A DNA stretch of 19,763 nucleotides from a virus (lineage: Duplodnaviria; Heunggongvirae; Uroviricota; Caudoviricetes): the IMG/VR virus record IMGVR_UViG_2671180268_000002; one strand, given 5' to 3'. The notes beneath the pieces are model-generated. The model searched no databases and was not told the DNA's origin. It saw only the letters and a program-made list of their open reading frames with translations. The translations under genes and the position numbers were made by a program. Positions 258-19,763 of this stretch are shown here, in pieces. How positions within the stretch are numbered: position 1 is the stretch's first letter; the number at the start of each line of letters is the position of its first letter.

Positions 258-668
258 TTAGTGCGGAAATATTTGTGTAGTGTTCTGTATGTTCTCAGTA
301 AAGAGTAATGAATTATCAAAGGTATAGTAATACCTTTTGTTTTCGTGGATATTTGTAATCCATCTGAAAACCCCTGCTGTAGCAAGATTTTTCCTGTATT
401 CGTAAAATGATAACTCTCCTGATTTGAATCCTTTTAAGGTGGCTTCTATAAGGCATTTATTTTTTGAAAATCTTACATTTACAACCTTACCCTGTCCTTT
501 TATTAAAACCGTATTATCGTTTTCAAGAACAAGATGAATATTCTCTGTGGCTAAATAGTAAATGTAATGTGAGACATTGTGACGTTTTAGTTCAGAATAA
601 AACCAGTGATAGTTTAAATTATTTCGCACTTTATCGAATATTTGTTTAAAAATGGCAACCTGAGCCAT
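258..668 (-). CDS. YbcV-like small phage accessory protein (family catalogued as a DUF, I believe DUF1398, unverified); homolog of an ORF near the lambda right end
   Basis: Track ORF 258..683 minus strand, 141 aa. Preferred start is the second ATG (complement of 666-668, giving [11 protein letters not shown]...) because GGAAGG lies upstream as a Shine-Dalgarno; alternative start at 683. Strongly AT-rich compared with the structural genes. Protein recalled as closely similar to the lambda right-end ORF product. Confidence 0.75.
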
Positions 669-725
669 TGTAGTACCTTCCATGTGATATGAGGGGGCGT
701 AGTCTGCACGATTATCTAAATTGCT

Positions 726-15289: not shown

Positions 15290-16077
15290 ATGACAGAGAC
15301 AGAATCAGCGATTCTGGCGCACGCCCGGCGATGTGCTCCAGCGGAGTCGTGCGGCTTCGTGGTAAGAACGCCGGAGGGGGAAAGATATTTCCCCTGCGTG
15401 AATATCTCCGGTGAGCCGGAGGCGTATTTCCGNNNNNNNNNNNNNNNNNNNNNNNNNNNNNNNNNNNNNNNNNNNNNNNNNNNNNNNNNNNNNNNNNNNN
15501 NNNNNNNNNNNNNNNNNNNNNNNNNNNNNNNNNNNNNNNNNNNNNNNNNNNNNNNNNNNNNNNNNNNNNNNNNNNNNNNNNNNNNNNNNNNNNNNNNNNN
15601 NNNNNNNNNNNNNNNNNNNNNNNNNNNNNNNNNNNNNNNNNNNNNNNNNNNNNNNNNNNNNNNNNNNNNNNNNNNNNNNNNNNNNNNNNNNNNNNNNNNN
15701 NNNNNNNNNNNNNNNNNNNNNNNCTGGCGGGGATTGAGATGCCGGATTTTCATCGTGAGGATGACTGGTGGCGTCACGGTCAGAATCTCTATCTGGATAA
15801 TCTGGAGGCCACAGGGCTGTATCAGGTGCCGTTGTCAGCGGCGCAGCCGGGCGATGTGCTGCTGTGCTGTTTTGGTTCATCGGTGCCGAATCATGCCGCC
15901 ATTTACTGTGGTGACGGCGAGCTGCTGCACCATATTCCTGAACAACTGAGTAAACGAGAGAGGTACACCGACAAATGGCAGCGACGCACACACTCCCTCT
16001 GGCGTCACCGGGCATGGCACGCATCTGCCTTTACGGGGATTTGCAACGATTTGGCCGCCGCATCGACCTTCGTGTGA
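15290..16077 (+). CDS. K: Tail tip assembly protein gpK (JAB/MPN-like N-terminal part and NlpC/P60-like C-terminal part), interrupted by N-run 15433-15723
   Basis: Before the gap: MTETESAILAHARRCAPAESCGFVVRTPEGERYFPCVNISGEPEAYF. After the gap: LAGIEMPDFHREDDWWRHGQNLYLDNLEATGLYQVPLSAAQPGDVLLCCFGSSVPNHAAIYCGDGELLHH..., matching the lambda gpK C-terminal half. The two parts are in different frames relative to the N-run, so the gap length is not the true length. Confidence 0.85.
15433..15723. other. Run of 291 N (unresolved sequence) inside K
   Basis: Literal n characters; flanking K segments are out of frame relative to each other. Confidence 0.99.
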
Positions 16078-16646
16078 AAACGGGTGCCGAAGCCATCCGG
16101 GCGATGGCCACACAGCTCCCTGCGTTTCGTCAGAAGCTGAGCGACGGCTGGTATCAGGTGCGTATTGCCGGGCAGGATGTTAGCACGTCCGGATTAACGG
16201 CACAGTTACATGAGGCTCTGCCTGACGGCGCTGTGATTCATATTGTTCCCAGAGTCGCCGGGGCCAAGTCAGGTGGTGTATTCCAGATTGTCCTGGGAGC
16301 AGCCGCCATTGCCGGATCATTCTTTACCGCCGGAGCCACCCTTGCAGCATGGGGGGCTGCCATTGGTGCCGGTGGTATGACCGGCATTCTGTTTTCTCTC
16401 GGTGCCAGTATGGTGCTCGGCGGTGTGGCTCAGATGCTGGCACCGAAAGCCAGAACTCCCCGCACACAGACAACGGATAACGGTAAGCAGAACACCTATT
16501 TCTCCTCACTGGATAACATGGTTGCCCAGGGCAATGTTATGCCTGTTCTGTATGGTGAAATGCGCGTGGGGTCACGTGTGGTATCTCAGGAGATCAGCAC
16601 GGCAGACGAAGGGGACGGTGGTCAGGTTGTGGTGATTGGTCGCTGA
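15975..16646 (+). CDS. I: Tail tip assembly protein gpI
   Basis: 223 aa, MAATHTLPLASPGMARICLYGDLQRFGRRIDLRVKTGAEAIRAMATQLPAF...; matches lambda gpI; overlaps the 3' end of K by 103 nt in another frame, as in lambda. Confidence 0.95.
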   Translation: MAATHTLPLASPGMARICLYGDLQRFGRRIDLRVKTGAEAIRAMATQLPAFRQKLSDGWYQVRIAGQDVSTSGLTAQLHEALPDGAVIHIVPRVAGAKSGGVFQIVLGAAAIAGSFFTAGATLAAWGAAIGAGGMTGILFSLGASMVLGGVAQMLAPKARTPRTQTTDNGKQNTYFSSLDNMVAQGNVMPVLYGEMRVGSRVVSQEISTADEGDGGQVVVIGR

Positions 16647-19600
16647 TGCAAANNNNNNNNNNNNNNNNNNNNNNNNNNNNNNNNNNNNNNNNNNNNNNNN
16701 NNNNNNNNNNNNNNNNNNNNNNNNNNNNNNNNNNNNNNNNNNNNNNNNNNNNNNNNNNNNNNNNNNNNNNNNNNNNNNNNNNNNNNNNNNNNNNNNNNNN
16801 NNNNNNNNNNNNNNNNNNNNNNNNNNNNNNNNNNNNNNNNNNNNNNNNNNNNNNNNNNNNNNNNNNNNNNNNNNNNNNNNNNNNNNNNNNNNNNNNNNNN
16901 NNGGAAAAAGACATCACCATTAAGGGCAAAACCACCTCGCAGTATCTGGCCTCGGTGGTGGTGGATAACCTGCCGCCGCGCCCGTTTAATATCCGGATGC
17001 GCAGAATGACGCCGGACAGCACCACAGACCAGCTGCAGAACAAAACGCTCTGGTCGTCATACACCGAAATCATCGATGTGAAACAGTGCTACCCGAACAC
17101 GGCACTGGTCGGCGTACAGGTGGATTCGGAGCAGTTCGGCAGCCAGCAGGTGAGCCGTAATTATCATCTTCGCGGGCGCATTCTGCAGGTGCCGTCGAAC
17201 TATAATCCGCAGACGCGGCAATACAGCGGTATCTGGGACGGAACGTTAAAACCGGCATACAGCAACAACATGGCCTGGTGTCTGTGGGATATGCTGACCC
17301 ATCCGCGCTATGGCATGGGGAAACGTCTTGGTGCGGCAGATGTGGATAAATGGGCGCTGTATGTCATCGGCCAGTACTGTGACCAGTCNNNNNNNNNNNN
17401 NNNNNNNNNNNNNNNNNNNNNNNNNNNNNNNNNNNNNNNNNNNNNNNNNNNNNNNNNNNNNNNNNNNNNNNNNNNNNNNNNNNNNNNNNNNNNNNNNNNN
17501 NNNNNNNNNNNNNNNNNNNNNNNNNNNNNNNNNNNNNNNNNNNNNNNNNNNNNNNNNNNNNNNNNNNNNNNNNNNNNNNNNNNNNNNNNNNNNNNNNNNN
17601 NNNNNNNNNNNNNNNNNNNNNNNNNNNNNNNNNNNNNNNNNNNNNNNNNNNNNNNNNNNNNNNNNNNNNNNNNNNNNNNNNNNNNNNNNNNNNNNNNNNN
17701 NNNNNNNNNNNNNNNNNNNNNNNNNNNNNNNNNNNNNNNNNNNTTGACCCGGATAACGGCTGGGAGACGGCGACAGAGCTTGTGGAGGATACGCAGGCCA
17801 TTGTCCGTTACGGTCGTAACGTCACGAAGATGGATGCCTTTGGCTGTACCAGCCGGGGGCAGGCACACCGCGCCGGGCTGTGGCTGATTAAAACGGAACT
17901 GCTGGAGACGCAGACCGTGGATTTCAGCGTGGGTGCTGAAGGGCTTCGTCATGTACCGGGCGATGTCATTGAAATCTGCGATGATGACTATGCCGGTATC
18001 CGCACCGGCGGGCGCGTGCTGGCGGTGAACAGCCAGACCCGGACGCTGACGCTCGACCGTGAAATCACGCTGCCATCCTCCGGCACCACGCTGATAAGCC
18101 TGGTTGACGGGCAGGGGAATCCGGTCAGCGTGGAGGTCCAGTCCGTCACCGACGGCGTGAAGGTAAAAGTGAGCCGTGTTCCTGACGGTGTTGCTGAATA
18201 CAGCGTGTGGGGGCTGAAGCTGCCGACGCTGCACCAGCGATTGTTCCGCTGCGTGAGTATCCGTGAGAACGACGACGGCACGTATGCCATCACCGCCGTG
18301 CAGCATGTGCCGGAAAAAGAAGCCATCGTGGATAACGGGGCGCACTTTGACGGCGACCAGAGCGGCACGGTGAATGGTGTCACGCCGCCAGCGGTGCAGC
18401 ACCTGACTGCCGAAGTCACCGCAGACAGCGGGGAATATCAGGTGCTGGCGCGCTGGGACACGCCGAAGGTGGTGAAGGGCGTGAGCTTCCTGCTCCGTCT
18501 GACCGTAACAGCGGATGACGGCAGTGAGCGGCTGGTCAGCACGGCCCGGACGACGGAAACCACTTACCGCTTCACACAACTGGCGCTGGGGAACTACAGG
18601 CTGACAGTCCGGGCAGTAAATGCGTGGGGGCAGCAGGGCGATCCGGCGTCGGTATCGTTCCGGATTGCCGCACCGGCAGCGCTGTCGCGGATTGAGCTGA
18701 CGCCGGGCTATTTTCAGATAACCGCCACGCCGCATCTTGCGGTTTATGATCCGACGGTACAGTTTGAGTTCTGGTTCTCGGAAAAGCGGATTGCGGATAT
18801 CAGGCAGGTTGAAACCACAGCACGCTATCTTGGCACGGCGCTGTACTGGATAGCCGCCAGTATCAATATCAAACCGGGCCATGATTATTACTTTTATATC
18901 CGCAGTGTGAACACCGTTGGCAAATCGGCATTCGTGGAGGCTGTTGGTCAGCCGAGTGATGATGCATCCGGTTATCTGGATTTTTTCAAAGGCGAGATAG
19001 GGAAAACCCATCTGGCTCAGGAGCTGTGGACGCAGATTGATAACGGTCAGCTTGCGCCTGACCTGGCTGAAATCAGGACGTCCATTACGGATGTCAGCAA
19101 TGAAATCACGCAGACCGTCAATAAGAAACTGGAAGACCAGAGTGCGGCAATTCAGCAGATACAGAAGGTTCAGGTTGATACAAATAATAACCTGAACAGC
19201 ATGTGGGCTGTGAAGCTGCAGCAGATGCAGGACGGACGCCTTTATATCGCGGGTATTGGTGCCGGTATTGAGAACACCCCTGACGGCATGCAGAGTCAGG
19301 TGCTGCTGGCGGCGGACAGGATTGCGATGGTTAATCCTGCGAATGGCAACACAAAACCGATGTTTGTTGGTCAGGGCGATCAGATATTCATGAACGACGT
19401 GTTCCTGAAACGCCTGACGGCCCCCACCATTACCAGCGGTGGAAATCCATCGGCATTTTCCCTGACTCCGGACGGAAAGCTGACCGCTAAAAATGCGGAT
19501 ATCAGTGGCAGTGTGAATGCGAACGCCGGGACGCTCAACAATGTCACGGTAAATGAAAACTGTACGATTAAGGGCATGCTGGAGGCGACTCAGGTCAGAG

Positions 19601-19763
19601 GTGACTTCGTTAAAGCTGTATCCAAATCATTTCCGAAACAGGCTGGTACGTGGGGTAACACGGAAACACCAAACGGGACGGTTACAGTCACCATAAGCGA
19701 TGATCATAACTTTGACCGCCAGATTATTATTCCGCCCATTATTTTTAACGGTATAGCGTATGA
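16646..19763 (+). CDS. J: Central tail fiber / host specificity protein gpJ; partial (runs off the window end) and interrupted by N-runs 16653-16902 and 17389-17743
   Basis: Start overlaps the I stop (TGATG). Resolved segments ([19 protein letters not shown]..., [19 protein letters not shown]... through fibronectin-III-like repeats to ...[22 protein letters not shown]) match lambda gpJ closely except for a divergent patch at about 18990-19370. Frame changes across the second N-run. Confidence 0.9.
16653..16902. other. Run of 250 N (unresolved sequence) near the 5' end of J
   Basis: Literal n characters; by comparison with lambda J numbering, fewer codons than expected separate the start from the EKDITIKGK segment. 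Confidence 0.99.
17389..17743. other. Run of 355 N (unresolved sequence) inside J
   Basis: Literal n characters; the J reading frame before and after differs by one nucleotide relative to the N-run length. Confidence 0.99.

Follow-up and report, generated by a model that had tools for sequence, protein, structure and literature searches.

The divergent patch in the C-terminal part of gene J in the window, which is the whole 19,763-nucleotide stretch of Caudoviricetes virus DNA analysed here (IMG/VR record IMGVR_UViG_2671180268_000002), is very probably the long-shaft allele of a self-contained J module, containing the trimeric alpha-helical shaft (AHS) and the upper beta-prism layers. Two anciently diverged alleles of this module occur naturally and recombine freely with at least three types of receptor-binding domain (RBD), and receptor choice would be set by a separate RBD module, from nt 19510. 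The patch is a common interchangeable shaft allele and belongs to ordinary phage mosaicism. The result refines, in a modest way, what is known of lambdoid mosaicism and reveals no new kind of system.

Gene J and the limits of the divergent patch

The window ORFs show a tail operon in lambda order, with genes encoding an 853-aa H, M, L, K, I (223 aa) and J, the last being the final gene of the H-M-L-K-I-J tail-tip cluster. The J residues matching lambda 150-311 and 405-820 show about 97% protein identity to lambda J (NC_001416). Three N-masked runs upstream of the patch break the J reading frame: the start codon is inside the run at 16653-16902, the run at 17389-17743 splits the readable part, and the window end cuts the 3' side of the gene. 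J was not taken as one ORF from 16646, since this 413-aa ORF is made by N-runs that keep neither length nor frame, and J was not considered a pseudogene. The alignment to lambda was made with the J frame of nt 17746, after the last N-run, and the J C-terminus was supplied from the J protein P0002, which is 100% identical to the window J in a 356-aa overlap. The entry with the 100% protein match to the window J is from Shigella sonnei, and among complete E. coli genomes none matches the last 2 kb of the window at >98%; the window thus probably comes from a Shigella prophage. P0002 shows the Pfam domains Ig_J, Ig_J_second, Phage_Tail_Tip and Ig_GpJ_C, which is the domain order of lambda-type J proteins. 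The features of this region are the following:

16904..19763, plus strand: readable part of J (central tail fibre or tip attachment protein), with about 97% protein identity to lambda J
18685..18987, plus strand: FNIII-2 (second Ig/FNIII-like domain), the conserved left flank of the patch (Pfam Ig_J_second, P0002 residues 53-153)
18958..19200, plus strand: long form of the AHS, 81 aa (HMMER against PDB gpJ 8iyk/8xck)
19031..19356, plus strand: highly divergent cassette core (shaft and upper beta-prism), from blastn breakpoints
19042..19128, plus strand: 29 extra codons replacing lambda L837 (HMMER gap between lambda 836 and 838)
19201..19383, plus strand: upper beta-prism (central straight fibre, lambda 862-922), from lambda and PDB alignments and the Phage_Tail_Tip match
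19384..19509, plus strand: conserved lower beta-prism block, ending in NADISG (lambda 923-964; DNA identity 0.90-0.98)
19510..19763, plus strand: start of the RBD, type R1, non-lambda, cut by the window end (Pfam Ig_GpJ_C, P0002 residues 364-499)

As the first-pass annotation had described, J tracks lambda gpJ at about 97% protein identity up to GYLDFFKG, whose last codon ends at nt 18993. The divergence after this motif is real, the lambda sequence that the annotation had given for comparison is correct (NC_001416), and the return to lambda-like sequence that it placed near 19380 is found at nt 19384. It had also located the extreme C-terminus of J outside the window, as the cut at the window end and the completion from P0002 confirm. 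GYLDFFKG ends the near-identical stretch in the alignment, and the patch, nt ~18990-19383, shows about 50% protein identity to lambda 821-922 with a net gain of 28 residues. The sequence is then lambda-like again for 42 residues (nt 19384-19509), after which a second divergence, absent from the first-pass annotation, extends to the window end. The sliding DNA identity to lambda is 0.88-1.00 up to ~18945, 0.02-0.68 through ~19365, with an 84-nt net insertion, 0.90-0.98 in 19366-19545, and below 0.70 from 19546. The divergence of the patch far exceeds chance or ordinary allelic drift, because its dS between window and lambda is 2.07, against 0.16 and 0.22 in the flanks; its dN/dS is about 0.2.

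The FNIII-2 flank shows DNA identities to lambda of 0.78-1.00, dropping from ~18920, and 88-97% amino acid identity between carriers of one patch allele and carriers of the other. The upper beta-prism, included in the Phage_Tail_Tip match (P0002 207-335), is the half of the patch that diverges without change of length (dS 2.23 and dN 0.28 against lambda). The lower beta-prism block shows a dS of 0.22 and a dN of 0.011 against lambda, and a median identity of 93% across carriers of both alleles. This block adjoins the 3' end of the patch and the 5' end of the RBD module, and is likely to be a recombination linker. In 21 natural J genes with the lambda-type patch and the RBD type of the window, blastn homology to the window ends at 19030 and restarts at 19357.

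It is practically excluded that the patch arose in the window through faulty assembly or masking. An artefact would be favoured by the N-masked runs, three in number, interrupting the J frame and by the odd internal duplications in some database J genes, but the patch itself is continuous, in frame and N-free, and it is 100% identical in phage phi458 (at the nucleotide level) and in many complete E. coli genomes. These identical sequences in independent complete genomes refute an artefact.

Patch alleles and receptor-binding domain types

Among 144 J genes from viral contigs and phages, the patch shows two length classes only, of 102 aa and 130 aa, with at least 92% identity inside a class and 46-53% between classes, and no intermediate or hybrid patch was found among these genes. 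Designating the lambda-type patch P0, the patch of the window P1, the RBD type of the window R1 and the RBD type of lambda itself R0, seven patch and RBD combinations are present in the 144 genes: P0 is found with R1 in 21 genes, with R2 in 11 and with R3 in 26, and P1 with R1 in 27, with R2 in 33 and with R3 in 13, whereas R0 is seen solely with the short allele (12 of 12), probably owing to clonal lambda copies. Since the viral-contig samples are the 80 nearest relatives per query and non-random, these counts show that the combinations exist and not how frequent they are. One example is P0016, which contains the long shaft and an A8-type RBD. The allele of the window is present in 3609 of 5426 complete E. 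coli genomes and that of lambda in 2650. The patch therefore shows the features of a mosaic module: a sharp drop in identity with near-identical flanks, an older divergence inside, and varied combinations with its neighbours. The first-pass annotation had named a patch within normal allelic variation of J as grounds for refuting its reading, and this is essentially the case: the patch is one of two standing alleles, and the commoner one.

The first-pass annotation placed part of the patch in the receptor-recognising region of J, so that a swap here would suggest a different or modified specificity. This is highly improbable, and the proposal is already largely refuted. It is favoured by the position of the patch in the C-terminal third of J, by LamB binding, which was reportedly shown with a large C-terminal fragment of J (~684-1132), and by the fact that the J of the window also has a non-lambda RBD, both differences coinciding in one gene. 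However, R1, R2 and R3 each occur with both patch alleles, and thus the patch is not co-inherited with the receptor type. The patch ends at P0002 residue 285 and Ig_GpJ_C starts at 364, about 80 residues later. In lambda numbering the patch covers 821-922 and lies outside the J specificity region, lambda 960-1132, where 97% of the substitutions in OmpF-gain mutants fall (PMC6646904). In the solved complex, the contacts with LamB come from loops L1-L4 of the terminal Ig-like RBD (PMC11101478), and by analogy with lambda the patch region would have no receptor contact. Lambda chimeras fused at residue 964, chosen by Brodel et al. as the 'last stretch of identity', switch from LamB to OmpC with the shaft of lambda retained (PMC11338833). 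The mosaic patch in the C-terminal third of J stands, then, and maps to the shaft and upper prism rather than to the receptor-recognising portion; the predicted change of specificity through this swap is not supported, as the alleles assort independently of the RBD and chimeras at residue 964 suffice for a switch.

The part of J that would bear on the receptor is the second divergent block, which is the RBD and begins at ~19510-19545. The RBDs in PDB 8xcj and 9wca are homologues of this block, which shares 44% identity with the RBD of lambda, 48% with 1A2-like RBDs and 52% with A8-like ones; 1A2 and A8 are types R2 and R3, and neither is R1. Because the RBD is only 44% identical to that of lambda, use of LamB cannot be assumed. 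Judging from its sequence, the J of the window probably uses a non-LamB receptor, because the RBD differs from 19510 onward and not because of the patch; the different receptor suggested earlier is thus retained, and its attribution to the patch is not. In the literature on Ayreon, phi458, cdtI and the Eligo gpJ chimeras, no published receptor was found for the R1-type RBD.

Structure and possible role of the long shaft

The AHS has 81 aa in the window versus 53 aa (809-861, limits from PMC11101478) in lambda, and occupies the homologous position between FNIII-2 and the beta-prism. HMMER places the D encoded at nt 18958 opposite lambda D809 and aligns query residues 1-28 with 809-836 (8iyk_J) and residues 58-81 with 838-861 (PDB gpJ chains). 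The net gain from the insertion is 28 aa, or four heptads. The spacing of its hydrophobic residues, 3-4-3-4-4-4, is amphipathic and favours a helix, but the heptads are not perfectly regular. Searched by itself against PDB, the insertion matched only SidK and Rad50, in coiled-coil segments and at non-significant E values (0.3-10), and no Pfam model covers the upper shaft in P0002. The insertion segment is also present in phage 21, YYZ-2008, PhiR12_1 and P0149. Single-sequence AF2, a mode that tends to over-predict helices, shows a helix at residues 3-28, a break at 29-33 and a helix at 34-98; the break falls at NGQLA, with confident helix after it (block-mean pLDDT 91-95 over residues 41-80, monomer only). 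When the C-terminal 500 aa were modelled as an AF2 monomer from an alignment of eight sequences, the mean pLDDT was 44, and ~25 over the shaft and prism, which makes this model unusable for the patch. The single-sequence model suggests that the extra residues form a Gly/Pro kink together with about four coiled-coil heptads; a fully helical insertion would lengthen the closed fibre by roughly 4 nm (28 x 0.15 nm).

Between the conserved anchors, the shaft has 50 aa in lambda, 78 in the lineages of the window, the Stx-phage and PhiR12_1, and 85-425 in distant homologues. The motif ELW..I..G..P is kept in the long-shaft lineages and in distant homologues and is lost in lambda. The shaft of lambda is the shortest form in the family sample examined, and from these alignments it looks like a derived deletion variant, because other lambdoid lineages and distant homologues have shafts at least as long.

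In lambda, receptor binding is relayed upward, and the shaft flips and partly refolds from helix into beta strands (Ge and Wang, 2024, PMC11101478); the FNIII domains are freed and the tube opens (PMC11101478). By analogy, the long shaft of the window may undergo the same fold switching, and the long allele would give more fold-switch material and reach while the same receptor is bound.

There is a real but lesser chance that the long and the short shaft are equivalent in function. The two forms would then only be left over from two ancient lineages of J in which recombination has evened out the flanking sequence, and the 28 residues would have no adaptive role. The dN/dS of the patch, at ~0.2, carries no signal of positive selection, both alleles are very common, often in the same host species, and both combine with the same RBD types and lie upstream of the same Stf collar type. 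Against equivalence, the length classes are fixed, with zero intermediates or hybrids among the 144 genes, the helix-kink motif is conserved in distant homologues, and the region is mechanical in lambda, while killing by the F7 pyocin is abolished by mutations that block the fold switch. The fixed lengths, the conserved motif and the mechanical role suggest that shaft length and sequence are under constraint.

It is scarcely to be expected that side fibres, or some accessory protein, dock at the acidic Gly/Pro kink (IDNGQLAPD) of the long shaft in the manner of F-type pyocins. The side fibres of the F2 and F7 pyocins bind a negatively charged, Gly-induced kink of the AHS, and in the long allele the helix is predicted to break at NGQLA, with Asp residues on either side, a feature absent in lambda and conserved in distant homologues. 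But the collar of the Ur-lambda Stf binds the gpV/gpM junction and not gpJ, and no extra candidate gene is seen. Of the 72 loci with the long allele, 67 encode a lambda-like Stf N-terminal collar domain downstream of J, as do 61 of the 71 with the short allele, and because it is downstream of both alleles, no distinct fibre-attachment system travels with the long shaft. Docking of side fibres is ruled out as the main reading by this distribution together with the gpV/gpM binding.

Within the shaft-allele reading, the cassette could go further and be a second determinant of host range or infection efficiency, independent of the receptor, which we consider rather unlikely. In that case the four-heptad difference in length and the kink, which lambda has lost, would adjust how far the fibre extends through O-antigen or capsule, or how much energy it takes to set off the helix-to-beta trigger. 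If this were true, lambda, the structural model, would be an atypical short-shaft deletion variant, its collapse geometry (29.7 to 13.2 nm) would fail for most natural J proteins, and the gap-entropy peaks upstream of the J specificity region, left unexplained by Maddamsetti et al. (2018), would be accounted for.

Annotation of J and comparison with known systems

For annotation, the flagged patch should not be taken as a sign of changed receptor use, and it is the RBD, starting at nt 19510, that informs predictions of the receptor. Downstream of FNIII-2, J contains at least two modules that can be exchanged independently, one being the shaft with the upper prism and the other the RBD. They are parted by the conserved 42-residue linker, and the same site serves phage engineers for chimeras. 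This is useful for the design of gpJ chimeras and for reading the structural mechanism of lambda.

The lambda gpJ (PDB 8IYK, 8XCG-8XCK) shows the same gene position and domain order as the J of the window, with ~97% identity over 405-820 and ~95% over 923-964, and its shaft, prism and Ig-like RBD are homologous. It differs in the shaft, of 53 aa versus 81, with the predicted Gly/Pro kink only in the window; identity over the shaft and upper prism is only ~50%, synonymous divergence there is saturated, and the RBD is 44% identical. The J proteins of phi458, cdtI, Ayreon and ev099 and of Shigella sonnei/E. coli prophages (P0002, P0004) show the same long-shaft allele and an R1-type RBD, and with few substitutions they are in effect the same protein as that of the window; for none of these phages, ev099 included, was a published receptor found. 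Phage 21, Lambda_4B5/1H12 and the Stx-phage YYZ-2008 share the long shaft, with 78 aa between anchors, and its conserved flanks, but their RBD is A8/R3-like, which gives OmpC use when grafted onto lambda; the shaft of YYZ-2008 is a further diverged long variant, with ~69% nucleotide identity. The pyocin fibre (PDB 25vf, E = 8e-4 to the patch) has a lower shaft and an upper prism homologous to those of the window, and like the window J it passes from FNIII domains to a helical shaft and a beta-prism, with shaft length varying among relatives; pyocin shafts differ in being much longer (~160 residues or more) and in bearing side fibres.

Divergence of the patch from lambda J

The window carries a late operon in lambda order (Nu1, A, head genes, tail genes, an 853-aa H, M, L, K, I and J), and J is open at its 3' end. 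Three masked runs cut into K and J:

15433-15723, N-masked run
16653-16902, N-masked run
17389-17743, N-masked run

Compared with lambda, these runs keep neither length nor frame: about 250 nt too few are left for J residues 1-149, and the third run (357 nt vs 279 nt in lambda) shifts the frame by 2. J is therefore readable only piecewise, and a 413-aa ORF at 16646-17887 was rejected as a masking artefact. A gene of unknown function sits at the prophage end beside the packaging genes: a 141-aa ORF upstream of Nu1 on the opposite strand (258-683, minus strand), with a hit to Pfam DUF1398 (E = 3e-43).

Window J was aligned to lambda J from NC_001416. Lambda residues 405-820 are nearly identical in the window, up to GYLDFFKG; across lambda 821-922 (the patch) about half of the aligned residues are shared and the window is longer by 28 residues. 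Near-identity is back at nt 19384 and lasts 42 residues; identity falls a second time at about 19545 and stays low for the rest of the window. DNA identity along J, in 60-nt windows, passes from 0.88-1.00 to 0.02-0.68, a stretch with an 84-nt net insertion, then to 0.90-0.98 and below 0.70. The dS values against lambda (Nei-Gojobori) are 0.16 for residues 405-808, 2.07 for the patch, 0.22 for 923-964 and 1.05 for the visible receptor-binding domain (RBD), with a patch dN/dS of about 0.2. By the identity profile and the dS contrast, the patch is real, has sharp limits and diverged anciently; it is not a product of rapid evolution in place. The first-pass annotation had described this divergence after GYLDFFKG and the lambda-like return, and both hold against NC_001416; the lambda sequence given there is accurate.

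Structural identity of the patch

Structures of lambda gpJ have been solved (PDB 8IYK, 8XCG-8XCK). LamB receives loops L1-L4 of the terminal RBD; on binding, the alpha-helical shaft (AHS, gpJ 809-861) flips by about 180 degrees, residues 841-861 switch from helix to beta strands, and the FNIII domains are freed, with the distance between FNIII and the distal end of the RBD falling from 29.7 to 13.2 nm (PMC11101478). HMMER alignment to the solved chains sets window residues 1-28 (counted from nt 18958) against lambda 809-836, and residue 58 onward against 838 onward, leaving one insertion:

19042-19128, + strand, 29 window residues opposite lambda L837

By this pairing the patch is the AHS plus the upper prism, with the length difference inside the AHS. 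The Pfam order agrees: Ig_J_second stops just ahead of the patch, Phage_Tail_Tip spans the lower shaft and prism, and Ig_GpJ_C starts about 80 residues past the patch end; the Pfam search gave no match in the upper shaft.

The extra residues show a hydrophobic spacing of 3-4, and single-sequence AF2 of nt 18958-19260 predicts a helix at residues 3-28, a break at NGQLA and a helix at 34-98, with block-mean pLDDT of 91-95 over residues 41-80. The AF2 monomer with a shallow alignment is unreliable (pLDDT 44), so a helical insertion is supported but not proven. The 28 extra residues would add about four heptads to the trimeric shaft, some 4 nm if helical, and bring in a kink. Docking of side fibres at such a kink, as in the F2 and F7 pyocins, is not supported: both alleles have a lambda-like Stf collar domain encoded downstream of them (long allele, 67 of 72 loci; short allele, 61 of 71), and in Ur-lambda the Stf collar attaches to gpV/gpM.

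Shaft alleles and receptor-binding domains

J 3' ends were taken from IMG/VR by one search anchored on the conserved second Ig/FNIII-like domain (FNIII-2) and another on lambda's patch, and each was divided into FNIII-2, patch, conserved block and RBD. The 144 complete sequences fall into exactly two patch classes, P0 (lambda-like, always 102 aa) and P1 (window-like, always 130 aa), with at least 92% identity inside a class and 46-53% across classes, and four RBD types: R0 (lambda), R1 (window), R2 and R3.

Patch and RBD combinations in 144 genes; the IMG/VR sets are nearest neighbours, not random, and show which combinations exist, not their frequencies
P0 patch: R0, 12; R1, 21; R2, 11; R3, 26
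P1 patch: R1, 27; R2, 33; R3, 13

The 21 P0R1 genes lose DNA homology to the window at 19030 and regain it at 19357, a clean cassette replacement joining a lambda-type shaft to the window's RBD type.

Natural C-termini joined to lambda gpJ at residue 964 give OmpC-dependent, LamB-independent particles (Brodel et al., 2024; PMC11338833). Their 1A2 and A8 sequences match types R2 and R3, respectively (also PDB 9wca), and the A8-type RBD is found naturally on a long shaft (protein P0016). Since both patch alleles occur with RBD types R1, R2 and R3 and the residue-964 chimeras switch the receptor, the earlier suggestion that the patch swap alters receptor specificity is not supported. The specificity region has been placed at residues 960-1132 as an independent recombination module, and indel peaks upstream of it were left unexplained (Maddamsetti et al., 2018; PMC6646904); the AHS length dimorphism probably explains them. 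Judged from these sequences, recombination exchanges the shaft module independently of the RBD. Domain identity, cassette structure and independence from the RBD are demonstrated for the patch; that the two shaft alleles are functionally equivalent, their length difference having no phenotype, is a serious possibility.

The RBD itself is the real difference in this J, as read after completing the C-terminus from P0002, a 100%-identical Shigella sonnei protein:

19510-19763, running past the window, R1-type Ig-like domain (non-lambda), clearly divergent from about 19545

Its identity is 44% to lambda's RBD (R0), which binds LamB, 48% to the 1A2-like R2 and 52% to the A8-like R3, the latter two OmpC-type. 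Phages phi458, cdtI, Ayreon and ev099 share the R1 type, for which no published receptor was found in the literature on Ayreon, phi458, cdtI and gpJ chimeras. GenBank phages named 'Lambda_...' (LR595863 Lambda_4B5, Lambda_ev*, 1H12) show a long shaft with a phage-21/A8-like RBD, not lambda J, and these names are misleading for tail-fibre comparisons; Lambda_4B5 has an IS4 transposase directly downstream of J. In some database J genes the FNIII-2/shaft/prism unit is duplicated internally, in tandem and in frame:

P0001, Shigella sonnei, 608 aa
L118, locus in IMG/VR 2671180849_000006
P0063, protein

Junctions read AFSLTP/PTVQFEFWF and NADISG/SETRITDIRQ, and one gene has a 26-aa repeat inside the prism; such duplications may have arisen by unequal recombination between the J genes of prophages sharing a host, or be artefacts of assembly.

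Distribution and shaft length

The patch was correctly observed but is ordinary, a very common and already sequenced allele of the J shaft module. Of 5426 complete E. coli genomes, 3609 contain its DNA, for the most part at no less than 95% identity, and 2650 contain the lambda patch. It is 100% identical in phi458 and 97-99% in cdtI, ev099, phage 21 and the Lambda_4B5/1H12 records, and the long form is also found in more diverged lambdoid J (Stx-phage YYZ-2008, PhiR12_1 and protein P0149). In a homologue search over 1.84 billion representative proteins, alignments to lambda-type relatives break into two segments with the insertion left out; those to the more divergent long-form lineages and to several distant homologues run through it uninterrupted.

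Measured between two conserved anchors, I-x-x-T-x-L and DG..Y.AGIG, the shaft has 50 aa in lambda, 78 aa in the window and in the other lineages of E. coli, and 85, 117, 164, 240 and 425 aa in distant J-like proteins. Helical shafts of 85-425 residues occur in the distant central fibre proteins P0204, P0205, P0239, P0219 and P0258, the last with long heptad-like tracts that are rich in Q/S/A and repetitive within themselves. Within this family shaft length is highly evolvable. An ELW..I..(G)..P motif at the shaft top is kept in long-form and distant proteins and missing in lambda. By anchor-to-anchor length and this conservation, lambda is the outlier with the shortest shaft, and the divergent patch is better called lambda's peculiarity. 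The model phage is atypical, with a shaft four heptads shorter, which could bear on how widely the structural mechanism described for it applies.
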